A stretch of 64,000 bases of DNA from an uncultured Gemmatimonadales bacterium (GCA_963730185.1 CAVSQW010000008.1:32001-96000); one strand, 5' to 3'. Shown: positions 18,771-34,072, numbered from the stretch's first letter. Made by a program: numbers and translations. Notes: generated by a model not told the origin, from the letters alone.

Positions 18771-19586
18771 TCAGGGACGGGCCAGGGCGAGCAGAGACTC
18801 GCCACACCGGCTGCAATAGCGCGCCTCCGGGTCGTGCCGGTCCTGACCGCAGCGGGCGCAGGCCCGGCCAGTGTGCCGGGCCTTGGACAGTTCGACCGTC
18901 ACGATCCCGGTTGGGACCGCCACCAGCGCATACCCGAGCAGCATGATCAGCGTGGCGACGAGTTGGCCCAGGGGCGTCGCGGGCGCGATGTCGCCGTAGC
19001 CGACCGTGGTGATGGTCACGATCGTCCAGTAGATGCTGGTCGGGATGCTGGTGAAGCCGTTGGTGTGGCCCTCGATCAGGTACATGAAGGCCCCCAGGAT
19101 GACCGTCGTCGTGATCACGGTGGCGACGAAGATCGCGATCTTTCGACGGCTCTCCCGGATGGCCACCAGCAGGACGTCGGCCTCGCCGACGTACTCGACC
19201 AGCTTGAGAATCCGGAACACCCGCAGCACTCGCAGCACCCGAATCACCAGCAGGTACTGGGTCCCGGGGATGACCAGGCTCAGCCAGGTGGGCAGGATGC
19301 TGGCGAGGTCGATCAGGCCGAACAAGCTGGTGGCGTACCGCACCCGCCGCTCGACGCACGCCAGCCGCAGCAGGTACTCCACCGAGAACAGGATCGTGAA
19401 GGCCCATTCGACGATCTGCAGGGTGGCCCGGTACTCGGTCCGCACCGACTGGACCGAGTCGATCATCACCGCTGCGACGCTGGCGAGGATCGCCACGATC
19501 AGGGCGATGTCGAAGGCTTTGCCGGCCCGGGTATCGTGGAGGAAGATCACCCGGTAGAGCGAGTCCCTCCAGCCGTTCCTCGTCAC
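18771..19586 (-). CDS. Voltage-gated-type potassium channel (ion transporter)
   Basis: TITTVGYGD selectivity filter; S4-like RVLRVLRVFRILKL. Confidence 0.93.
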   Translation of the reverse strand: MTRNGWRDSLYRVIFLHDTRAGKAFDIALIVAILASVAAVMIDSVQSVRTEYRATLQIVEWAFTILFSVEYLLRLACVERRVRYATSLFGLIDLASILPTWLSLVIPGTQYLLVIRVLRVLRVFRILKLVEYVGEADVLLVAIRESRRKIAIFVATVITTTVILGAFMYLIEGHTNGFTSIPTSIYWTIVTITTVGYGDIAPATPLGQLVATLIMLLGYALVAVPTGIVTVELSKARHTGRACARCGQDRHDPEARYCSRCGESLLALARP

Positions 19587-22500
19587 GGCGTCACCGGCCG
19601 TCCCGGGGTCCAGGGAGCGCCCGCGGCCGTCAGGTCACGCTCGAGCCGGGTCAGCGGGCCGCTCACCAGCGCCTCCAGGTCGCGGGCCAGCCGGTCCATG
19701 TCGCTCGAGGCGATGTCGATGTCCCGCCGCTGGGTGGCCGTCGGCATCTGGCGGGTCTCCCAGTGGCCGGTCTGCACCAGACCGACCCGATCGGCGATCG
19801 ACGGCATGGTGGATTCGCTCAGCCGTTGGCGCTCGGGATCGCCCTGGAGCCGAGCGCCCAGGTCGGTCAGGGCTCGGCCGACCGAGTCGATCCGGCCGTA
19901 GAGCTCGGCCCCGGCCCGGGTGTCTCGACCAGGGCGGCCCGCATGGATCGGAGCCGCTCGTCGAGGCGCCCGATCTCCGCGCCGGCGGCCGAGACCCGCC
20001 GGGCGAGCTCGGCCGTCCGCTGCTGGAAGGCCGCGACGGCGGCCACGTCGGTGCCCGGTTCGAGCGTCGGCACCGGCTTGACCTCGAACGACTGGGGCGA
20101 GCCGACCCGGCGGGCGCCGGCGGCCGACACCACGACCAGCGTCGCCGTGTACCGGCCGGGCGCCACGAGCGGGCCCTTCGAGGGCGCATCCCAGGGGGCC
20201 TGGAACCCCGGCGGGGTCAGGTCGATCGCCTCGGGGTTGGCGCGCCGGAGATCCCAGCTCACCCGGTGGAGTCCGGCGGCGGTCGGCCCCGCGATCCAGC
20301 GGACCGGCGTCCCGGCGGCGTCCGAGACCAGGACCAGCACTTTGGGCCCGCCTTCGGTGGCCTCGGCCCGAAGGAGGTCGTAACCCGGAACTGGGACGTC
20401 CCCTCCCCGGGCCCGGATCGCGCCCTCCTCGAGGTGCCGTCGCTCCGCCGCGGTCGTGGGCGCCTCCTTCAGGTAGTAGGTCAGGAGCGCGCCGGCCGGC
20501 GGGTTCGGGGCGGTGAAGTCGTCGCTGCCCGCGGTGGGGCGGCCCGGAGCCTGGGCCAGCTGCGACGGCACGTACCACCAGGCGTCGCGCAGCGGCAGGA
20601 CGCCGCCGGCGGCGAACGCCCCGGCGGCCAGGGCCCGCAGCGGCGCGTAGTCGTCCAGGATCCAGATCCCCCGCCCGAAGCTGGCGCCGACGACGTCGTC
20701 GTCGCGGCGCTGGAGCTGCACGTCGCGGAAGGCGATGGTGGGCACGCCGGCGTCGAGGCGGTGCCACTTCGCGCCCCCGTCGACGGTGAACCAGAGGCCG
20801 GTCTCGCCGGCCAAGGAAGAGCAGGTCCGGCTCCACGTCGTCCTGCTGGAGCGCCCAGGGGATCTCGCCCGTCGGGGAGGTCGCCGCGGATGGACTTCCA
20901 GGTCCTGCCCCGCGTCGGTGGAGCGGAAGAGCTAGGGCGTGTAGTCGCCCAGCTTGTGGGCGTCGGCCAGCGGCGAACACGGTCGCCGCGTCGTACCGCT
21001 GGCCACCACCTTGTTGATGAAGCGCGCTCGGCACGCCGGGCAGCGCGGCGGCCTTCTTCCACGTGGCGCCCGCGTCGGTGGTGACGTGGATGAGCCCGTC
21101 GTCGCGACCCGGCCAGAGGCGCCCTTCGCCACCGGCGACTCGGAGATCGTGGTCAGCGTCGCGTACTTGGACATGGCCCCGTTGTCGTGGAGCGCGTCCA
21201 CCTCCCACACCCGGCCCATGTACGGGAGCGTGTAGCGGTCGGTGCCCGGTGGTGAGGTCGCCGGAGATGGCGGTCCAGTGGTCGCCCCGGTCGTCGCGCC
21301 CAGAGCCGCTGCGAGCCGTAGTAGATGCGCGCGGCGTCGTGGGGGGTGACGAGGATGGGCGAGTCCCAGTTCCAGCGCTCCGGCGGCTCGCCCGGGCGCG
21401 GCCTCGGGCTGGATGGGCATGACTTCCTCGTGGCGCCGGTCCACGCGGTGCAGGTGGCCCTCCTGCGTCATCATGTACATGACGTCCGGGTCCGAGGGAT
21501 CGAAGGCCACGCCGTAGCCGTCCGGCCCATAGGGACATCAGCCAGTCCTCGTTGCGCACGCCCTCGTGGTGCGGGTGCGCGCCGGCGCCCACAGCGTCCC
21601 CAGGTCCTGGGCGCCCCGCCACCAGATCGTAGAAGGGCGACCGGCTCGAGGGACACCTTGTAGAACTGGGCGACGGGCAGGTTGGGGAAGTGCCGCCAGC
21701 CGCGTGCCCCGGTCGAAGGTCTCGTAGAGGCCGGCGTCGGTCCCGGCGAGCATGTGCAGCGGCGTTTCTCGGGTCGATCCAGAGGGCGTGATTGTCGGAG
21801 TGCTTGTCGCGGCCCGTCTCCAGGTTGTCGAACGTCTTGCGCCGCCGTCGTAGGTGACCTGGAAGAAGACGTCCATCTGGATGACCACGTCGGCTTCGGT
21901 CGGCGAGGCTTCGATCTCCTGGTAGTAGTGGGGGCCGGTTCCGCCGGGGAGGTAGGTGTTGCGCTGCTCCCAGCTCTCGCCCCGGTCGGTGGAGCGGTAG
22001 AAGCCTTCTGCTCCCGGCGCTGGCCTCGATGGTGGCGTAGACACGGTCCGGGTCGGCCGGCGTCACCGCCAGGCCGATCTTACCCATGTCCCCCGTGGGC
22101 AGGCCGGTCGTGAGCTGCCGCCAGGTGCGGCCGCCGTCGGTGGACTTCCAGATCCCGGACTCGGGGCCGCCGGCCAGGAAGCCCCAGGCGTGCCGGCGCC
22201 GCTGGTAGGCGGCGGCGTAGACCATGTTGGGGTCGTCGGGGGCGAACTCGAGATCGGTGACCCCGGTGTTCTCGTCGATGGTGAGGCGCGGCGTCCAGGT
22301 GGCCCCGCCGTCGGTCGGAGCGGTACACGCCCCGGTCTCCTCCCGCCGACCAGAGCGGCCCTTCGGCGGCGACCAGGACGACCTTGCCGTCCTCGCGGGT
22401 CGACCAGGATCCGCCCGATGTGCTCGGACTTGGCCAGCCCCATTCGCCTGCCAGGTCCGGCCGGCGTCCCGGCTCCGATAGACGCCGGTCCCCCAAGCGA

Positions 22501-22855
22501 CGTGCCGGCCGCTGACGTTCTCGCCGGTGCCGACCCAGACGATGTCCGGATTGGACGGCTCGAGCGCGATCTCGCCGATCGAGTAGGAGGGCTGCTCGTC
22601 GAAGACCGGCGTCAAGGTCACGCCGCCGTTGGTGGTCTTCCAGACCCCGCCCGACCCGGCCGCCACGTACCACGTGCCGGGAACCCGCGGGTTCACGGCG
22701 ATGTCGGCGATCCGCCCGCCGGCCAGCGCCGGGCCGATCCCGCGCAGGGTGAGCGCGGCGGTGGCCTGGGCGATCGAGGAATCCGCCGCCTGAGCCCGGA
22801 CCGAGCGGGGCAGGGCGGCGGCGACGAGGGCGACGATGACGATCGGGTATCTCAT
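19583..22855 (-). CDS. Large secreted VPS10/BNR-repeat glycosyl hydrolase-like protein, with many frameshifts as sequenced
   Basis: RGIGPALAGGRIADI, GGVWKTTNGG, HSDNHALWID and ASFGRGIWILDD pieces spread over three frames; indels cluster at about 19.9 kb and 20.8-22.45 kb. Confidence 0.8.
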   Translation of the reverse strand: MRYPIVIVALVAAALPRSVRAQAADSSIAQATAALTLRGIGPALAGGRIADIAVNPRVPGTWYVAAGSGGVWKTTNGGVTLTPVFDEQPSYSIGEIALEPSNPDIVWVGTGENVSGRHVAWGTGVYRSRDAGRTWQANGAGQVRAHRADPGRPARTARSSWSPPKGRSGRREETGACTAPTDGGATWTPRLTIDENTGVTDLEFAPDDPNMVYAAAYQRRRHAWGFLAGGPESGIWKSTDGGRTWRQLTTGLPTGDMGKIGLAVTPADPDRVYATIEASAGSRRLLPLHRPGRELGAAQHLPPRRNRPPLLPGDRSLADRSRRGHPDGRLLPGHLRRRRKTFDNLETGRDKHSDNHALWIDPRNAAAHARRDRRRPLRDLRPGHAAGGTSPTCPSPSSTRCPSSRSPFYDLVAGRPGPGDAVGAGAHPHHEGVRNEDWLMSLWAGRLRRGLRSLGPGRHVHDDAGGPPAPRGPAPRGSHAHPARGRARASRRSAGTGTRPSSSPPTTPRASTTARSGSGRDDRGDHWTAISGDLTTGHRPLHAPVHGPGVGGGRAPRQRGHVQVRDADHDLRVAGGEGRLWPGRDDGLIHVTTDAGATWKKAAALPGVPSALHQQGGGQRYDAATVFAAGRRPQAGRLHALALPLHRRGAGPGSPSAATSPTGEIPWALQQDDVEPDLLFLGRRDRPLVHRRRGREVAPPRRRRAHHRLPRRAAPAPRRRRRRRQLRAGDLDPGRLRAAAGPGRRGVRRRRRPAAARRLVVRAVAAGPGSGPPHRGQRRLHRPEPAGRRAPDLLPEGGAHDRGGATAPRGGRDPGPGRGRPSSGLRPPSGRGHRRRAQSAGPGLGRRRDAGPLDRGADRRRTPPGELGSPARQPRGDRPDPAGVPGPLGCALEGPARGARPVHGDAGRGVGRRRPPGRLAPVVRGQAGADARTGHRRGRRRGLPAADGRARPAGLGRRRGDRAPRRAAPIHAGRPGRDTRAGAELYGRIDSVGRALTDLGARLQGDPERQRLSESTMPSIADRVGLVQTGHWETRQMPTATQRRDIDIASSDMDRLARDLEALVSGPLTRLERDLTAAGAPWTPGRPVTP

Positions 22856-22978: not shown

Positions 22979-23034
22979 CCGGCGTCCGGCGTCCGGCGTC
23001 CGGCGTCCGGCGTCCGGCGTCCGGCGTCCGGCGT
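22979..23034. repeat. Perfect tandem heptamer (CCGGCGT)x8
   Basis: Eight exact copies counted between the Rrf2 stop and the hydrolase start. Confidence 0.95.
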
Positions 23035-23068
23035 GCGGTCGGTCACGTCACCTGTCAGGGCGTGACGT

Positions 23069-23841: not shown

Positions 23842-25210
23842 CTATCTCACCCAGACGGTCTTGATGTTCACGAATTCCTTGATCCCGTAGTGGGAGAGCT
23901 CGCGGCCGTAGCCGCTCTCCCGAATCCCGCCGAAGGGGAGCCGAGGGTCGGACTTCACCATCCCGTTCACGAAGCAGGCGCCGGCCTCGAGCTCGTGGGT
24001 GGCGATCCGGGTGCCCCGGGCGGCGTCGGCGGTGAACACGGCGGCGCCGAGTCCGAAGACGGTATCGTTGGCGACTCGGAGGGCCGCCTTTTCGTTCCTG
24101 ACTGGAATGATGGCCGCCACCGGTCCGAACAGCTCCTCGCCATAGGCCGGCATGCCTCGCTTCACGTCGGTGAGGACGGTCGGCGGGTAGTAGGCGCCGG
24201 GCCCCTCGGGCACCTGGCCGCCGAGGAGGCAGCGCGCCCCCTTCTCGAGGCTCCGGGTTACCTGGGCGTGGAGCTCGTCACGGAGGTCCCGCCGCGCCAT
24301 CGGACCCACCACGGTGGCGGGATCGGTGGGATCGCCCATGGGCGTCGCCCGCATCCGCTCGACGAACCGGCGCTCGAACTCCTCGCGGACCGACTCCACC
24401 ACGATGAACCGCTTGGCCGCGATGCAGCTCTGGCCGCCGTTGATCAACCGGCTGGTGGCGCAGGTCGCCGCCGCCAGGTCGAGGTCCGCGTCCTCGCAAG
24501 ATCAGGTAGGGATCGCTGCCCCCGAGCTCGAGCACGCATTTCTTGAGTTTGGCGCCCGCCGCCCGGGCCACGGACCGGCCGGCCGCGGTGCTTCCGGTCA
24601 GGGTCACGGCCCGCACCAGGGGGGTCCGGATCAGGCCGGCCGCGACCTTGTTGTCGACCAGCAGCGTCCGGAACAGGCCGTCCGGCAACCCGGCCCGCCG
24701 GAACACGTCCTCGATGGCCAGCGCGCACCCCGGCACGTTCGAGGCATGCTTGAGAATGCCCGCGTTCCCCGCCATCAGCGCCGGGGCCGCGAACCGGAAC
24801 ACCTGCCAGAAGGGAAAGTTCCACGGCATGATGGCGAGCACCACGCCCAGGGGCTCGAAGGCCACGAAGCTCCGGGTCGCATCGGTGGCGATGACTTCGG
24901 GCGCCAGGAACCGCTCGGCGTGCTCGGCGTAGTAGTCGCACACCCAGGCGCATTTCTCCGCTTCGCTCACCCCGCCGGACACGGGCTTCCCCATCTCGTC
25001 GGTCATCAGCTTGGCGTAGCTCGGCGCGTCGGCCCTGAGAATCCGGGCCGCCTCGCGGAGCACGGTGGCGCGCCCGTCGAAGGGCACCTTGCGCCAGGCG
25101 AGGTGCGCCGCGTGGGCCGCGCGGATCGCCTGCCGGGCCTCGGCCGGCGGGGTGGGCTGGTACTCGGCGACGACGGCGCCGGTGGCTGGGTTGATCGCGC
25201 GGATGGTCAT
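23842..25210 (-). CDS. gabD: NAD(P)-dependent succinate-semialdehyde dehydrogenase (one frameshift near 24495)
   Basis: IMPWNFPFWQ, LKHASNVP, LTGS, LELGGSDP, INGGQSCIAAKR, EELFGPV and PFGGIRESGYGRE motifs; ATGA overlap with the C45 gene. Confidence 0.85.
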
Positions 25211-26232
25211 GAGGTCTCTCCAGGCTGGGAGGTCGCCAGGGTCGGCGTCCGGTCCGTTGGATCGGGGAACTTGATGGTCACCCGGCCCTCCCGAAAGTCG
25301 GTGATCGACTGCGACAAGGTGAACCCGGGCCAGCGGAACTCGGCTCGGCCGGAACGAGGCTGGTACACCGCCGTGTAGAGGGTACCCCACCCGTGATCGA
25401 AGCGATTCGAGTAGAGGGGCGGGGTCAGGAACCGGTCCGCGAATCGGGGCCCGGTTTCGTGGTCGTCCTCCAGGCGGGCGGACAGGAATCGCTCCCGGTC
25501 CACCGTGGCCGTCGCCGACGCGAACCGGGCCCATTCGACCGTCCCCTGATGGTTGGTCGCATAGCGGCGCCGGAGCACGACGGCGGGGCGGTCCGGGTTG
25601 GTGAACACCGTGGCGTAATCGGCGCCGCGGTCGAGGAGGGTGATGTTGTAGGCCATGTGCGTGGGAACCCGGGCCAGGACCCGGACCGCGTCCGGGACGG
25701 TCGCGCAGGTTTCCAGAACGTACCGGAGGATCAGCGGCATGGCGAACCCGTCACCGACGGCGGTGCGGCCGCCGAAGGCGAGCGAGACCGCCAGGCCGTG
25801 CTCGTTGATGCCGTCGAGCACGCCCCAGAGGCTGTCGCTCATGGCCACCACCCGGCAACCGGTCCAGGCCGAAGCCAGCAACAGGGCCTCCCAGAGCCGG
25901 GGGCTGTAGTCGTAGTTCCGGACCAGGAACGGCTCGTCGCCCCGGGTCCACACCGCCTGGGAGCAGCCGGTCAGGTAGGGCGTGGGCCGATAGAGGCTCA
26001 GGAGCCGGGCCGCGAGATCGCCGCCTCCCGCCAGCTCGACCAGGCGCTCGTAGGTCGGGATCAGCTCCGGCATGTGGGTCCGAAGCGCCCGCACCGACAC
26101 CCGGTAGGACGGGCGCGCGGCATCGCCCTCCTTGAGGAACCAATGGCGGTAGGTTGGCTCCATGAGGGCGTAATGCCGCCGCCAGGTCGCCCCCGGCTCG
26201 GGTTCCTCCACCGCCTGGAGATCGCTGGTCAC
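25207..26232 (-). CDS. C45-family autoproteolytic Ntn-hydrolase/acyltransferase
   Basis: YLTG|CSQ autocleavage site with Cys nucleophile; RNYDY, LDGINEHGL, ATNHQ and GTLYTA motifs. Confidence 0.85.
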   Translation of the reverse strand: MTSDLQAVEEPEPGATWRRHYALMEPTYRHWFLKEGDAARPSYRVSVRALRTHMPELIPTYERLVELAGGGDLAARLLSLYRPTPYLTGCSQAVWTRGDEPFLVRNYDYSPRLWEALLLASAWTGCRVVAMSDSLWGVLDGINEHGLAVSLAFGGRTAVGDGFAMPLILRYVLETCATVPDAVRVLARVPTHMAYNITLLDRGADYATVFTNPDRPAVVLRRRYATNHQGTVEWARFASATATVDRERFLSARLEDDHETGPRFADRFLTPPLYSNRFDHGWGTLYTAVYQPRSGRAEFRWPGFTLSQSITDFREGRVTIKFPDPTDRTPTLATSQPGETS

Positions 26233-26242
26233 GTCGGCCTTC

Positions 26243-27752
26243 TCAGAGCAGCTTGAAGTTCCCCACGTCCACCGGCTGGGCGGCGACCTGGACGTCGGCG
26301 GGCCGGATCCGTCGGCTCCGATACTGGGCGAGAATCCCCTCGGTCCACGCCTTGGCCCGGGCGTTGAGGCGGAATCCCTTGGTCATCAGCCGGCCGGGGG
26401 TGATCAGGATCCCGAGGTCGGCGCCTTCGTACTTGTAGTCGCCCTCCCGGGCGATCCGGAGGAAGAACGCCTCCGATTCGCTTTCCACGGTCCGCCGGTG
26501 GGTCTGGGAGCGGACGAAGTGGACTCCGTCGCCGTCCAGGCGCCAGACCCCGGAGGGCGGGGCCGCGGTGATGACCTCGGTGGTGTCGCTGGTGTGTTTG
26601 ATGACCAGCTGCCCCCAGGGATCGATGTTGGCGGGATCCGACCAGCGCCGGTTGAGCGCGGCCACGTCCAGGTCGAAGTCGGCCTTGGCCCACTGGAGCA
26701 GGTGAAACAGGAAGAGCGGAGCGTCGGCGTGGGCGAACGCGGCGAGGTTGGTCATCGCGCTGGCCCCGGTGATCCGGGGGTTCACCTCGCCCAGGAACAG
26801 TTCGCCGGTGTTCCGCTCGATCAGGAAGTCCAGCTCGAAATATCCGGTGTAGCCCAGCCGGCCCAGCTCGGCCCCGAATTGGAAGCTGGCGTCGCGGGCC
26901 TGGTCCCGGATGGCTCGGGGGAAGGCTTCCGCGAGGACTTCATTGCCGCACCAGCCGCCCCGGTAGGGGGTCAGCTCCTTGAAGCCGATCAGCTCGGTCA
27001 TCAGGGGGCCCACGATGGTGCCCTCGCGGGTGACGCATGCTTCCAGCGCCGAGCCTCGCACGCTGACCCGGCGCATGACCTTGACCTCCGGCTCGGCCAC
27101 GATCTCGTCCGCATGCTTCTTCCAATCGGCCTCGCTCTTGATGAAGAAGGTGGTGTGGCCCGAGTCGCCGAACGCGGTCTGCACGACCAGGTCGTGGCCC
27201 AGCTCCCGCGACACCCGCCTGAGGTCGGTCCAGCTCTCCACCTTGGTCAGGACATGGGGCACGGAGCGGACCCCGGCGCGGTCGCCGATCCGGGTCGTCT
27301 CGAGCTTGTTGTCGACCTGCTGCCGCAGCCGGGCCGGCGGGAAGCAGATCTCGAGCCCGAACTCACGGCAGAGCTGCTCGGTCTGCTCGTCGAAGAAGAG
27401 GAAGACCGCCTGGCCGCCGCGACCCTGGGCCGCGGATGAAGTCCACGACCTCCTTGTGCTCCAGGAGGTAGTTGTTGATCTCCTCGAGGCAGGTGAACGG
27501 CCGATGGGGCCGCTCCGACGGCACGAAGACGTGGGGGTGCTGCCGTCGAAGCAGTCGATGTAGTTGATGAAGTGGAAGTTCCGGACCCACTCGTCGATCC
27601 CGAGCAGGTTGAAGGGGTGGCGCTGATGAAGAAGACCGGCCGCTCCGTGCGGTGGAAGTAGCGCCGGATGTCCGATGACGCCGTGCAAGCTTCGGCCGCC
27701 GGCGTGCGCGCCCCGCTCTTCACCGCGGTGTGGATTTCGTGAGACCGGTCAT
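26243..27752 (-). CDS. Orphan ATP-grasp ligase (family often mislabelled biotin carboxylase); N-terminal part frameshifted
   Basis: DNKLETTRI, VVQTAFGDSGHTTFFI, GYFELDFL and GEVNPRITG ATP-grasp motifs; AAGGAG RBS and ATGA overlap with the decarboxylase. Confidence 0.8.
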
Positions 27753-30590
27753 GCCCGCACTCCTTTCGGCTCCGGGGACCGCGCGGCGCTCGTCGGCGGA
27801 GGCTTCCACCAGCGACGCCAGGCCGTCGGGCTCGAAGATTCGGAGCCCGTAGGCGGGCTCATAGCCATGGATCTCCTTGACGTCGAGCTGCGAGGAGATA
27901 GCGGAGGATCTCCGCCGTGATGACCTGCCCCGGCATCAGGACCGGGAAGCCCGGCGGATAGGGCGTGACGAAGGAGGCGGACACGACCTCGCGGCCGGCC
28001 TCGACGCTCGCGCAGCGGGCCCGTCGAGGGCACGTACTCGCAGGTGCCGTCGTCATAGGCCAGGAAGAAGGCGTCGCGGAGTCGCCTTCGGGCGTCGGCC
28101 TGGTCCGGGGTCGACTGGAACGCCGGGTGGAAGCGGCTGAAGTTCGGCAGCGGCGGCAGCTCGTCGGTCAGCGACCGAGACTCGCTGGTCGGAAGCGCGT
28201 GCCCGGCGATGCCGCTCTGGTGCGACCGCTCGTCATCCAGCTCCTCGGCGATCCGGGTCAGCACCTTGACCAGGTTGCGCGACCGTGCCCCGGGTCATGC
28301 CGATGTGGATCATGAACAGCACGCGTGTTGCGCGAGGTCTTGTTGATCTGGATGTCGAAGCGGTTCATGAGCAGCGTCTTGAACGTGTCGCCGTCCATCC
28401 CGGTCCGGCCGACATCAAGCGTGATGCGGGTCGGGTCGAGCACGAATTCGTCCGCGGGCCCACGCCTCCTCCAGTCGGCTCCAGCCCCGGCTCGGCATCG
28501 TAGTACGCCTCGAGGCCCGACGGCCGGTACGCCGCCGGGACCATCTCCTGCGGGCCGAGCACCCGGAAGTACTTGCGGAGCAGCGGCGTCCGCGCCGGAT
28601 CCGCTCGCGCAGGGTCATGGCCAGCTCGATGCTGCGCTGCGACCAGCTCGTAGCCCTCCAGCTCGACCTGGCGCCGCCCGATATCGAGCGAGGCGAGGAT
28701 CTGATAGTTGGGCGAGGTCGAGGTATGGGTCATGTACGCTTCGTGGAAGACGCTCCGCACGCCGGTGCTCGAAGTCCTGATCGTGCACATGGATCATCGA
28801 GCCCTGCCGGAGCGACGTCAGGGTCTTGTGGGTCGACTGGGTCGCATAGACCCGGACCCGTGACCCGATCGCGGGTCGGGCAACGCGGCCCGGCGGTCCA
28901 CGGACGCTCGTCTTTCGGCTGGGCGGTCGCCGGCTGCCTGGCGTATTCCGCGCGGTACGCCGGGTCGGCATAGCTGGCGGCAGACGGTTCGGCGGCCTCC
29001 ATGGCGGTGCGCTGGCGGAGCGTCGGCGAGAAGCGGGCCGAACGCGAACCACGCCTCGTCCCACACGAAGATCATGTCCGGCTTGATCGCCAGCACCTCC
29101 TCCATGACCCGCTACGGATCGTAGGTGATGCCCGTCGAAGGTGCATGTTGGTGAGGAGCAGGACCTTGACCCGATCGAGCTTGCCGGCCCGTTCCAGGGC
29201 TCGAGCAGGTGCTGTCTTGATCGTCGTCGCAGCGTGACGCCGCCGTACATCGAGAACGGAGTGAGCGGATAGGCGTCGAGGTAGACCGGCCGGGCGCCGG
29301 CCAGGATGACGGCGTAATGGTGCGACTTGTGGCAGTCGTGCGAGAGCAGCACGATGTCGCCCGGCCGGATCAGCGCCTGAAGCACGATCTTGTTGGCGGT
29401 CGATGTCCCGTTGGTGACGAAGTAGGTCCGCCGCGCGCCGAACGCGCGGGCGGCCAGGTCCTGAGCCTGTTCAGCGATCCGCGGGGCTGGAGCAGCGAAT
29501 CCAGGCCGCCGGTGGTGGCCGACGTCTCGGCCTGGAAGATGTTGCGGCCGTAGAACTGCCCCATCTCGCGGATCCAGTGCGACTTCGCGATGCTCTGGCC
29601 GCGCGAGATCGGCAGGGCATGAAAGACCCCGGTCGGCTTCTGACTGTAGCGCTTGAGGGCCGATGAAGAACGGGGTCTCGTACCGCTCGTGGACGCCCTT
29701 GAGCACGCTCAGATGGAGGTCGTGGTAATCCTCCTCCCGGTAGAAGACCCGGCGGAAGTCACGCGGTCGGATCGCCGACCACGTGCTCGACCGGTGCGTC
29801 GGTGACCAGGAAGAGGTCCAGCTCCGGGCGGAGGGCCTTGAGCAGGCCGCCGAGCACCAGGCTTCGCTCCGAGGCCCAGCGGCCCTCGAGCTGCGCGGGG
29901 TCTTGCCCCAGCAGCGCATAGGCGTCGTTCAGGAACCCGTGCCGGTGCTCCGACCGAAACGGGAAGCTGTAGCGGATGATCACCGATTGGATGTTGAAGT
30001 TGACCAGGGCGGCCATCACGGCGTCCTCGAACGTGCCGGCCGACGACGACGTCGTAGGCGAACGGCGTCCTCCGGCCGCCGGAGGTCGAGCAGCCTGGCC
30101 CGGTCCTCCTCGGCCTGCCGGGGAGTGAGCTCGTCGACGACCAACACCTCGAAGTAGGGCCGGTGCTCGCGCTCGGCCTCGAGGTGGACCGAGTTGCTGA
30201 GCGAGCTGGTGTTGAGGAGATCGGCGTAGCTTCGGACCCGCGACGCGCCGAGGTCGAGGCGGCGGTACCAGCCGTTGGAAAGGAGGCGGACCAGCCGGAT
30301 GGTCTGCCGGGCGAAGGTGTCGAACCTGGCGGCGTCGAAGTTGCGTTTCAGCTCCGCGAAGGCTCGTTCGCCGGGGAAGGCGTGATAGGCTTCCAGCGGC
30401 GCCAGGTAGTCGAAGGCCTCGGTGCCGGCCTGGAGCGCTTCGGGGGGAACGTCGCCGGCCTGCTGCAGCCGGCGCGAGACGGCGGCCGTGGTCCCGGAGA
30501 GGTCCAGAGGTCCTTGCGGAGCCGGGACAGGTTGAAGATCGGGGCGTGTCGCGGATCTAGCTCCGCGGGTGGGCGATCGGCATAGGCCAT
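27749..30590 (-). CDS. Large (about 940 aa) Orn/Lys/Arg-family PLP decarboxylase with extended N-terminal wing; many frameshifts as sequenced
   Basis: ETSATTGGLDSLLQP, FVTNGTSTANKIV, CHKSHHY, DEAWFAF, YATQSTHKTLTSLRQGSMIH (PLP lysine), HTSTSPNYQILASLD and FVTPYPPGFPVL motifs across frames. Confidence 0.85.
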
Positions 30591-30595
30591 CAGGG

Positions 30596-31503
30596 CTATC
30601 CTCCTTCCAGGGAGCCCGCCGGCGCCACCGCCGCCGGATTGCCGGGCGGTCGGTGGGCCCGTTCCGGTCGGCGGATCGGTCCCAGGCTCTGAAGAAAGGG
30701 GCTCGCGGCCGGGGCGTAGGCCGGAAACGAAACCCGGGTATCGCGAAAACTCTTGAGCGGCTGGCCCAATCCCCGGAGGCCGATCTCGCGGCTCCGATGG
30801 ACCCGGTCGAGGTCGAGCTCCAGGGGAATGATCTCCTCGGAGGTGCCGGCTTGATGGAGCACGTCGCCCGCCGGGCCCACGATGATCGAGCGACCGTTGC
30901 CGAGGTCGCCGGCGCCGTTCACCTCGACCACGAAGCATTGGTTCATCGCGGCGGTCGCCCGGGCCATCGCCAGCTCGACGTCCCGATCGATCGTGGTGGT
31001 CAGCGCCGGATGCAGGATCACCTCGGCGCCGAGCGTGGCGAGGGAGCGCGAGTGTCTCGGGGAACCACATGTCGTAGCAGATCGAGATCCCGAAGCGACC
31101 GACCTCGGGCACGTCGAAGACGACGAACTCGTCCCCCGGCTCGGTCTCGGTCTCGTACGGCTGGAACGGGAAGATCTTCCGATACCGCCCCACGACCTCA
31201 CCGTCCGGATCGAAGACGCTGGCCGTGTTGTACACCTTGTCGCCGGCCTTCTCGAAGTGCGAGCCGTTGAGCAGCCAGATCCGGTGCTGGCGGGCCAGCT
31301 GGCGAAAGCTCTCCTCGGCTGGGCCCGGGCAGGGGCTCGGCGTGCCCGGCCCCCGGCCCGCACCCGGCCAGCTCGCTGAGCACCACCATCTCGACCCACG
31401 GGAAGACCTGCATCAGGTAGCTCAACCGCTCCCGGATGCGGGGCAGGTTACCGCCCCGGCCCGAGAGGGCCAGCTGCAGGCCGGCGATGGCGAACGGTCT
31501 CAT
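30596..31503 (-). CDS. Nitrilase-superfamily carbon-nitrogen hydrolase (frameshifts near 31320 and 31050)
   Basis: Glu-Lys-Cys triad motifs LSEL, YRKIFP and ICYDMWFPE. Confidence 0.85.
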
Positions 31504-31519
31504 GATCGGACTCCGCACT

Positions 31520-32863
31520 TCAATGGGCGGCAACCTTCGCCGCCGCCCGCCGTTCGGCGCGCGGCTCGGGGAAGGCCCGGAGAATCTCCTCTTCGACGAC
31601 GTCGAGCCCGCGACTCAGTTGGTCCGGCTCGATCACCAGGGGCGACAGCAGCCGGATCACGTTGCCGTGGGTTCCGGCGGCGATGATCAGGACCCCGCGG
31701 GCCACGCAGGCCTGAATGATGGCCGCCACTTGGGCGGTGGCGGGCTGGGCCGGGTCGCCGTCTTCCACCAGCTCGATCCCGATCATGGCGCCCAATCCTC
31801 TGACGTCGCCGAGGGCCGGACACCGCCGCTGAAGCGCCTCGAACCGGTCCCGGATCGTCTTCCCGATCGCGGCGCCCCGGGCGTTCAGGTCCTCCCGCTC
31901 CATCACCCCGATCGCCGCCAGCGCGGCCGCGCACGCCACCGGGTTACCCCCGTACGTTCCACCCACGGTGCCCGGCTTCACCCGGTCCATCACCTCCGCC
32001 CGCCCCAGCACCGCCGAGATCGGCATCCCGCCACCCAGCGACTTGGCCCAGGTCGAAAGATCCGGCACGATGTCGTAGTGCTGGTAGGCGGCCCACTTGC
32101 CGGTCCGGCCGAATCCACTCTGGACTTCGTCGGCAATCAGGAGGATCCCGTGCTCGTCGCAGATCCGGCGGAGCCCTTGCAGGTAGGCGACCGGGGCGGG
32201 GACGAAGCCGCCCTCGCCCTGGACCGGCTCGATCAGCACGGCGGCGACCTGTTCGGCCGCGACCGTGGTCGAGAACGCTTCCCGGAGCCGGCGGAGCTCC
32301 CGCTCGACGAACGCCTCGAGCCCGAGCCCGTCGCCGTGGTGGTAGTAGTTCGGGAACGGCAACCGGTAGATCTCCGGCGCGTAGGGACCGCTGCCGCTCT
32401 TGTAGCCGGTTTTCGAGGTGAGCGACATCCCGAGCAGGGTCCGACCGTGGAACCCCTCGCTGTAGCAGAGGATGGCCGGCCGCCCGGTCGCCTGCCGCGC
32501 GATCTTGACGGCATTCTCGACCGCCTCGGCGCCGCTGTTCAGGAGCAGGGCCTTGGTCCGATCGCCGTGAGGGAAGAGCGAGACCAGCTTCTCGCAGAGG
32601 GCGACGTACGGCTCGTAGGTGGCGACGTGAATGCAGATGTGGAGCAGCTGCTCGGCCTGGGCCTGGATGGCCCGCACCACCGGCTCGGCGCAGTGGCCGA
32701 CGTTCATCACCCCGATCCCGCCGGTGAAGTCGATCAGCGTGTTGCCCTCGAGGTCGGTCAGCATGGCGCCGTGCCCGGTGGCGATGGCGGCGGCCGTGAC
32801 GCGGGGCAGGCCCGGGGTGACGACCGCCGCCCGGCGGGCCAGCAGATCTTGGTTGCGGCTCAT
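31520..32863 (-). CDS. gabT: 4-aminobutyrate--2-oxoglutarate aminotransferase (class III PLP)
   Basis: DFTGGIGV, NSGAEAVENAVK, FHGRT, EPVQGEGG, DEVQSGFGRTG, AKSLGGG and GGTYGGNP motifs. Confidence 0.9.
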   Translation of the reverse strand: MSRNQDLLARRAAVVTPGLPRVTAAAIATGHGAMLTDLEGNTLIDFTGGIGVMNVGHCAEPVVRAIQAQAEQLLHICIHVATYEPYVALCEKLVSLFPHGDRTKALLLNSGAEAVENAVKIARQATGRPAILCYSEGFHGRTLLGMSLTSKTGYKSGSGPYAPEIYRLPFPNYYHHGDGLGLEAFVERELRRLREAFSTTVAAEQVAAVLIEPVQGEGGFVPAPVAYLQGLRRICDEHGILLIADEVQSGFGRTGKWAAYQHYDIVPDLSTWAKSLGGGMPISAVLGRAEVMDRVKPGTVGGTYGGNPVACAAALAAIGVMEREDLNARGAAIGKTIRDRFEALQRRCPALGDVRGLGAMIGIELVEDGDPAQPATAQVAAIIQACVARGVLIIAAGTHGNVIRLLSPLVIEPDQLSRGLDVVEEEILRAFPEPRAERRAAAKVAAH

Positions 32864-32959: not shown

Positions 32960-33006
32960 GGTAAGCGCTAACTTATTTCTAATCATATACTTAGAAAGCG
33001 CTTACC
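32960..33006. promoter_or_regulatory. AT-rich nested inverted repeat upstream of gabT with two LacI-like AAGCGCT sites
   Basis: Outer GGTAAGCGCT...AGCGCTTACC; inner TTTCTAA-N8-TTAGAAA; minus-strand TATGAT as a candidate -10. Confidence 0.6.
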
Positions 33007-33107
33007 GCAACCCGTCGGGCTGAGCTGTGACCAATTTGTGTCGGGTCTCCCTCGACCGCTGAGGCGCGTGATCCGGCGGTTGGGCAGGACCGAATCGAGG
33101 CTGGGGC

Positions 33108-33744: not shown

Positions 33745-34072
33745 GAGCCGCCGTCGGTCGAACGGGAGACACCCCGGTCGCCGCCCGCGGACCAGAGCGG
33801 CCCTTCGGCGACAACCAGGACGACCTTGCCGCGGTCGCGGCGTCGATCACGGTGCCGTGCTCGATCGAGCGAACGCCGCGCTCCAACCACCGACGGATCG
33901 CCTCGGGGGATCATGGGGATCTCGTCAGGGATAATTGTGACTTCTAGAATCACAATTGAGGTTGGGATGACAGACGCGTGCCACAGAGCGCGCGGGGTCG
34001 CGGCCGCGGTGGAGTCGGTTGACGGGCCCATCGTGCCACCGCCGCTCGGTGCCGAATCGCCCGACCGGCGGC
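33745..34072 (-). pseudogene. Mosaic remnant: Rrf2 upstream region and first codons, an amidohydrolase fragment and a VPS10-hydrolase fragment
   Basis: 33904-33968 and 34027-34072 resemble 23562-23628 and 23773-23820; 33831-33906 matches 35105-35180 at 66/76 ungapped; 33748-33831 resembles 22305-22389. Confidence 0.8.
33933..33957. promoter_or_regulatory. Putative Rrf2 operator, copy 2 (AATTGTGAC-TTCTAGA-ATCACAATT)
   Basis: Same arms and spacing as copy 1, with one mismatch. Confidence 0.65.

Follow-up and report, generated by a model that had tools for sequence, protein, structure and literature searches.

In the Puu pathway of Escherichia coli putrescine is γ-glutamylated by a glutamine synthetase (GS)-type ligase and then handled by an oxidase and by PuuD. 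In Mycobacterium tuberculosis Rv2531c (PDB 9N0N/9N0O/9N0P; PMC12329521) acts as a decarboxylase on glutamate but not on Lys, Orn or Arg, as reported from knock-out, labelling and NMR data in PMC13506015, which names K406, R576, T606, R718 and N731 as active-site residues and mentions neither gene neighbourhood nor ATP-grasp, biotin or gabT. A second M. tuberculosis protein, Rv1722 (GabtS), is an ATP-grasp enzyme that makes 6'-GABA-trehalose from 4-aminobutyrate (GABA), trehalose and ATP; this product is an ester of the GABA carboxyl group that is formed upon GABA overflow, its breakdown route is left open and Rv1722 is treated as mycobacterial (bioRxiv 10.64898/2026.04.15.718621). Rv1722 is described in PMC8562490 as a 494 aa 'possible carboxylase' with a 4-bp overlap with a 'probable hydrolase' in one transcription unit, and PMC3087520 places Rv1722 and Rv2531 in one group of acquired genes. 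Here we analyze a six-gene operon at positions 23842 to 32863 of a 64,000-nucleotide stretch of DNA from an uncultured Gemmatimonadales bacterium (GCA_963730185.1 CAVSQW010000008.1:32001-96000), the whole of which we refer to as the window, in which an Rv2531c-type decarboxylase, an ATP-grasp ligase and two hydrolases lie between gabT-like and gabD-like genes.

Our preferred reading, to which we assign a probability of about 0.5, is that the operon encodes a GABA shunt with a reversible store of GABA conjugate; it would thus belong to GABA metabolism, as an undescribed branch, and not to polyamine metabolism. Genes in the window, whose source genome is 5.3 Mb in size and 82% complete, were called from a listing of open reading frames (ORFs), Pfam matches and tblastn searches with an intact relative of the operon, L011, as follows.

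32863-31520, minus strand: gabT-like aminotransferase, 447 aa, intact, PF00202, no frame breaks
31503-30596, minus strand: nitrilase-superfamily C-N hydrolase, PF00795, Glu-Lys-Cys triad, 2 frame breaks
30590-27749, minus strand: predicted long-form pyridoxal phosphate (PLP) glutamate decarboxylase of Rv2531c type, about 940 aa, 26 frame breaks and a TAG at 29112
27752-26243, minus strand: ATP-grasp ligase, NF005096/PRK06524, operon-type clade, C-terminal FK tail, 4 frame breaks
26232-25207, minus strand: C45 autoproteolytic N-terminal nucleophile (Ntn) hydrolase/acyltransferase, 341 aa, intact, PF03417, Gly-Cys cleavage site
25210-23842, minus strand: aldehyde dehydrogenase, probably a succinate-semialdehyde dehydrogenase (GabD2/Sad type), PF00171, 1 frame break
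32960-33006, minus strand: AT-rich stretch, putative promoter/operator, containing a perfect 10-bp inverted repeat and a shorter paired motif that recurs at similar distance in four related loci

The initial annotation had described six same-strand genes in this order, joined by ATGA overlaps or gaps below 20 bp, behind one AT-rich region and including a decarboxylase of about 940 aa, and ORFs, Pfam matches and tblastn bear this out. The gaps are 16 bp (gabT/C-N hydrolase), 5 bp (C-N hydrolase/decarboxylase) and 10 bp (ATP-grasp/C45), ATGA overlaps occur at the decarboxylase/ATP-grasp and C45/dehydrogenase junctions, and a purine-rich Shine-Dalgarno-like run precedes the start codon at each junction. 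Alignment to L011 confirms the length of the decarboxylase, and the upstream stretch (32960-33010) has a GC content of 37% vs 69% in the operon.

The decarboxylase very probably makes GABA from glutamate, an assignment that draws on homology and on conserved residues. The L011 enzyme matches 9N0N/9N0O across about 900 residues with an E value of 4e-244, the family that ranks second reaches 3e-51, and four other operon decarboxylases score 847-892 bits, with all five at 816-892 bits and near full-length. When the Rv2531c residues are read across the L011 alignment in 103 relatives that have a long single-frame match, the equivalents of H405, K406, K570, R576, T606, S607 and N731 are invariant (103/103) and that of R718 is Lys in 81 and Arg in 22; the window decarboxylase retains the same active-site motifs. 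Together with gabT and gabD the decarboxylase would thus provide a full GABA shunt. The names gabT and gabD probably apply, resting on context and on best hits below curated cut-offs: the gabT-like protein scores 494 bits against TIGR00700 (cut-off 507), and the best NCBIfam match of an intact dehydrogenase homolog is PRK09406 at 536 bits (cut-off 730).

The L011 ligase belongs to NF005096, a model of 493 positions that it matches with 750 bits (cut-off 684), while the frameshift-truncated piece in the window reaches 600-602 bits against the same cut-off. A predicted model with a mean pLDDT (predicted local distance difference test) of 93.8 has the ATP-grasp fold, and fold searches with it return no specific ligase class. 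The ligase had been called an orphan, a term that is partly outdated since an NCBIfam model exists and the family probably has one characterized member. That member would be Rv1722, whose probable membership is judged from length, annotation and co-acquisition rather than from an alignment; no Mycobacterium-named protein is among the 120 matches listed for each ligase homolog search. We take Rv1722 to resemble an actinobacterial ligase clade (Gaiellales and Solirubrobacteraceae names, 62 of 183 tree rows) that separates from the operon clade with a support of 1.0 and is about 51% identical to the L011 ligase. In a comparison that took every second sequence of each set, the two clades share 118 columns at a level of at least 90% and differ in 13, among them (operon/actinobacterial) Arg18/Thr, Asn77/Cys, Glu255/Asp and Arg404/Trp. 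Arg404 is kept at 171 of 176 ligase loci and in the window, and the exchange of Trp for Arg in this column would suit the binding of a sugar vs an anion. On balance we consider it probable, with roughly two chances in three, that the ligase acts on GABA through its carboxyl group.

The C-terminal FK tail of the ligase (26246-26263) is conserved in both clades and is of low confidence in the model. A role as an obligatory catalytic arm or as a dock for C45 was considered and rejected, as the tail is absent from L084, L085 and L190-L192, although at these loci the decarboxylase and all or part of C45 are retained, and it is present in L024, L027, L061 and L062, which have no C45 nearby. Plasmid copies from Rhizobium and Sinorhizobium, L084 and L085 among them, are divergent, have no tail and are sometimes broken by insertion sequences. 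In L024 and L027 the ligase is solitary, and no gene for any of its five partners lies within 10 kb.

The operon is real and is present in many unrelated bacterial groups. The neighbourhood analysis of the ATP-grasp family that the initial annotation had proposed finds the gene set conserved across phyla, in a genome set (the best 80 of 320 ligase relatives) and a metagenome set (the best 80 of 416 relatives of a Cupriavidus homolog) that are both biased to close relatives, and in an even draw of 400 genomes from the phylum of an alphaproteobacterial carrier (G212). Where at least 1.3 kb of downstream sequence is available C45 directly follows the ligase at 66/71 genome and 54/54 metagenome loci (120/125 together), and where at least 1 kb is available upstream the decarboxylase accompanies the ligase at 74/78 and 41/58 loci, respectively. 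The full six-gene set occurs at 31 of 43 wide genome loci and 4 of 17 wide metagenome loci. Among the best 80 of 320 genome relatives the ligases nearest to that of the window carry Gemmatimonadota and Planctomycetota labels, and the exact six-gene order is found in 7, all labelled Gemmatimonadota. The even draw of 400 proteobacterial genomes yields 11 ligase carriers, with the decarboxylase and C45 beside the ligase in all 11, the C-N hydrolase in 9 and the transaminase and dehydrogenase within about 8 kb in only 2. These counts define a conserved core of C-N hydrolase, decarboxylase, ligase and C45 that is frequently extended by gabT and gabD; the position between these two genes that the initial annotation had emphasized is thus true of the window but is not part of the core. 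The dehydrogenase at these loci is drawn from several subfamilies. Identities of the ligase and of its partners correlate with Spearman coefficients of 0.53-0.79 (0.26 for the dehydrogenase), values that are confounded by kinship. Within the window's own phylum the ligase is found in only 1 of 200 other genomes, and in 0 of 5 within the genus, so that the cassette is patchy, and no relative was found on viral contigs.

Further evidence for the link to GABA comes from metagenome loci without a decarboxylase, 11 of 17 of which carry guanidinobutyrase/agmatinase-like or 5-guanidino-2-oxopentanoate decarboxylase genes, an arginine-to-GABA route; because the ligase-C45 pair also adjoins these genes where the decarboxylase is missing, the pair tracks GABA. 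Among individual loci, a Shinella plasmid (L082, 2397-14924) holds ligase and C45 inside a cluster of arginine racemase, D-amino acid dehydrogenase, 5-guanidino-2-oxopentanoate decarboxylase and guanidinobutyrase-like genes, without a glutamate decarboxylase, and L097, L115, L120, L126 and L130 are of the same type. In one proteobacterium cyanophycin synthetase and peptidase genes lie directly upstream of the cassette (L183:207-6443). A gene for a NylB-like 6-aminohexanoate-dimer hydrolase (E 3.5e-63) is located near a guanidinobutyrase-ligase-C45 unit (L127:391-1614, minus strand); as a regular partner this hydrolase was rejected, being present at 1 of 176 loci.

Both hydrolases retain their catalytic residues. 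The C45 homolog of L011 scores above the NF040521 cut-off, the Cys of the Gly-Cys autoproteolysis site is invariant (136/136 relatives), and no solved structure is related to it by sequence. N-β-alanyl dopamine is cleaved by Tan, another C45 enzyme that has this Gly-Cys site (PMC10194958), which provides a precedent for removal of an ω-aminoacyl group by a C45 enzyme. The Glu-Lys-Cys triad of the C-N hydrolase is likewise invariant (95/95 relatives), with its motifs also found in the window. Against named branches of its superfamily (AguB, Nit2, deaminated glutathione amidase) this enzyme reaches at best 78 bits vs a cut-off of 410, and its best solved relative is Nit2 (E 1.6e-23, 87 bits), which we take to be an ω-amidase. 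At several loci it adjoins the ligase although no decarboxylase is present, an arrangement that speaks against its being simply a glutaminase that serves the decarboxylase.

The cycle that we favor would then run as follows. Glutamate would be converted to GABA by the decarboxylase, as demonstrated for Rv2531c, and GabT and the dehydrogenase would take GABA on to succinate. Upon build-up of GABA the ATP-grasp enzyme, by analogy with Rv1722, would phosphorylate the GABA carboxyl group and pass the 4-aminobutyryl moiety to a small acceptor; C45, in the manner of Tan on β-alanyl conjugates, would cut the 4-aminobutyryl bond and return GABA to GabT. The nitrilase-family enzyme might contribute an ω-amidase-like hydrolysis of a succinyl or deaminated conjugate, which is the weakest step of the scheme. 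That the acceptor is something other than trehalose, with release by C45, we hold to be about an even bet. The initial annotation had the ATP-grasp enzyme acylate an amine or build a small storage amide; its ligate-then-release cycle feeding GabT and GabD is still the best reading, but activation of the carboxyl group of GABA itself is favored instead.

Several other readings of the chemistry have been weighed against this one. That the decarboxylase would supply putrescine, cadaverine or agmatine for acylation by the ligase, that is a polyamine pathway, is very improbable, even though the enzyme matches Pfam OKR_DC_1 and agmatinase-annotated genes and PuuR-like regulators lie near some loci: the Lys/Orn/Arg decarboxylase models (LdcC, CadA, AdiA, SpeC/F) are far under cut-off (best 197 vs 968 bits), the Rv2531c match is some 190 orders of magnitude better, the equivalent of Arg576 does not vary, and Rv2531c is inactive on Lys, Orn and Arg (PMC13506015). 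GABA is therefore the one of the four amines listed in the initial annotation that survives the assignment to the Rv2531c type. We give still less credence to the ligase being a biotin carboxylase, as NCBIfam names NF005096 and as top fold matches that include biotin carboxylase domains might suggest. Models built for genuine biotin carboxylases give about 30 bits, where their cut-offs exceed 600, in agreement with the earlier view that the ligase is not such an enzyme, and the NQK and QVEH motifs of pyruvate carboxylase, which we take to be catalytic there, align to GNE and TGAS. Neither biotin carboxyl carrier protein (BCCP) nor carboxyltransferase occurs in the window or among recurring neighbours, and searches for the glutamine synthetase, biotinyl/lipoyl and carboxyltransferase families give no match within the window, all genome matches lying elsewhere, as the initial annotation had stated for GS-like PuuA, BCCP and carboxyltransferase. 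A scheme closer to Puu, where the ligase would activate another acid such as glutamate to acylate the amine of GABA, and C45 or the C-N hydrolase would deacylate the product, is unlikely. Most ATP-grasp ligases form amides, both hydrolases are of amide-cleaving types, PuuR-like regulators are found near 23 of 176 ligase loci (although none was found in the window's genome) and glutamate-type transporters are close by; however, GABA is the acyl donor in the only characterized probable relative, and GABA, unlike putrescine before its oxidation, needs no protection ahead of GabT. There is no amine oxidase among the recurring neighbours, PuuD and PuuB are not among them either (no family search was made for these two), and GS-type PuuA has no match in the window. 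The amine protection proposed in the initial annotation is for these reasons not favored.

A further alternative accepts the carboxyl chemistry but takes trehalose, or a similar sugar osmolyte, as the acceptor, with the ligase as a GABA-trehalose synthetase and C45 as an esterase. The chemistry of Rv1722 and the 118 columns shared between clades speak for it, as do two OtsA and one TreS in the window's genome (TreY is absent over cut-off), and trehalose could be imported. We nevertheless regard this as doubtful, marginally less so than the Puu-like scheme. In the 50 carrier genomes chosen from the best 80 for long contigs OtsA is found in 20, and neither TreY nor TreS is found over cut-off in the 30 that lack OtsA, a complete Novipirellula genome included, in searches that did not cover TreT, TreP or uptake; 11 of these 30 have partial TreS-like matches. 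Among the 11 proteobacterial carriers, all at least 95% complete, OtsA is found in 3 and TreY and TreS in 1, whereas OtsA, TreY and TreS are all missing from 7, again with TreT, TreP and uptake not searched. OtsA is at none of the 176 ligase loci, transporters of the amino-acid, solute-symport and TRAP types recur nearby, and Trp404 of the actinobacterial clade is Arg in the operon clade. On the strength of the 7 of 11 carriers without these enzymes and of the 13-column difference between clades the acceptor is probably not trehalose. Our preferred guess is an anionic amino acid such as glutamate, which fits the nearby amino-acid and TRAP transporters.

Whether this particular copy is functional depends on how its frame breaks are read. 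Frame-aware alignment of the operon to L011 counts 33: the decarboxylase has 26, the ATP-grasp gene 4 (all in its 5' 330 bp), the C-N hydrolase 2 and the dehydrogenase 1, and gabT and C45 are free of them. There is in addition a single in-frame stop, the TAG in the decarboxylase. We think it likely that these breaks and the stop are sequencing errors. Insertions make up 24 of the 33, and an insertion excess is typical of long-read error. Genes with and without breaks fall in the same range of identity to L011 (65-74%), and no catalytic motif is lost. A codon-phase model, which undercounts since it finds only 21 shifts in the operon, predicts 51 in the window, 16 of which are at 16-24 kb in unrelated neighbouring genes that are equally broken, and in 23 other stretches, across contigs, it gives 0-9 shifts per 10 kb. 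The contrary reading, that the operon of this genome is a decaying pseudogene cluster, would explain the unusual density of breaks in the decarboxylase, and it gains from rpoB and rpoC of the same genome being intact and from the ligase being found in none of the five same-genus genomes; these points weigh against sequencing error, but we still judge decay to be unlikely. Two soil DNA sequencing runs matched, with shares of 0.20 and 0.16, and there was no RNA run among those listed.

Upstream of gabT the arms of the perfect 10-bp inverted repeat lie at 32960-32969 and 32997-33006, and two near-palindromic 12-mers, 33 bp apart at 32960-33006, represent the genome's only matches within one mismatch. 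Of 55 upstream regions, 5 have a paired motif that overlaps the 12-mers and has a 17-bp spacer, at 105-131 bp ahead of gabT (mean 0.8 and maximum 4 in shuffles, for a motif picked after the fact). Repeat and paired motif may have a regulatory role. A LacI-like reading of the repeat was rejected, as the 12-mer, with two mismatches allowed, turns up in just 2 of the 55 related upstream regions, and a sigma-70 consensus scan passed no promoter, nor was a minus-strand terminator found. Just downstream of gabD there is a gene for an Rrf2-family regulator (PF02082, 23069-23605, minus strand), which is not among the recurring neighbours, followed by an intergenic tandem 7-bp repeat of about seven copies (22980-23035). 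A large secreted-protein gene with many frameshifts occupies 19583-22855 (minus strand); its product is presumably glycosyl-hydrolase/sortilin-like, by appearance, and a short piece like its 5' part seems to be repeated near 33750-33860.

In a more speculative vein, which we put forward as a rather unlikely extension, the ligase product could be a 4-aminobutyryl amide unknown in bacteria, either GABA joined to glutamate or a short oligomer of GABA (natural nylon-4 units), that serves as a store of carbon and nitrogen, with C45 as the bacterial counterpart of Tan, the nitrilase-family enzyme salvaging conjugate that GabT and GabD have turned into its succinyl form and the GABA-trehalose of M. 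tuberculosis as a derived, sugar-accepting offshoot of a cross-phylum pathway. Our preferred reading itself predicts an abundant GABA conjugate in cultured carriers such as Novipirellula or Roseobacter ponti, and under it annotations as 'biotin carboxylase' or 'ornithine decarboxylase' would have to be corrected in their thousands. We found no paper that describes the operon in the open-licence PMC and bioRxiv literature; by this search its parts have recent precedents, and the assembly of the operon, both hydrolases and the product have none. Two enzyme types, each first characterized on its own in M. tuberculosis (2025-2026), adjoin in one operon of harmless environmental bacteria from several phyla, an identification that is firm for one type and probable for the other, and candidate enzymes can be named for conjugate breakdown, the step left open in the GABA-trehalose preprint.

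The comparison with described systems can be drawn as follows. The decarboxylase resembles Rv2531c in its length, in its four-domain layout, in a near full-length match and in all of the named active-site residues, and it differs in its setting, an operon that it shares with gabT and gabD, the ligase and both hydrolases. Like Rv1722, the operon ligase is an ATP-grasp enzyme misannotated as a carboxylase, of similar length, with an overlapping hydrolase next to the M. tuberculosis gene, a setting of GABA accumulation and co-acquisition with Rv2531; unlike the operon ligase, which is partnered with C45, Rv1722 lies far from the decarboxylase in M. tuberculosis, and many operon carriers are without known trehalose synthesis. 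With the E. coli Puu pathway the operon shares ATP-dependent ligation and hydrolysis upstream of a GABA transaminase and, at 23/176 loci, PuuR-like regulators, whereas it is entered from glutamate rather than from putrescine, with GABA as the probable acyl donor. Finally, in the Ebony/Tan pair an ω-amino acid is conjugated and then freed by a C45 Gly-Cys autoproteolytic hydrolase, much as we propose here, but the substrates are β-alanine and dopamine, Ebony is to our knowledge not an ATP-grasp enzyme, and the likeness of the operon C45 to Tan is one of family and cleavage site only.

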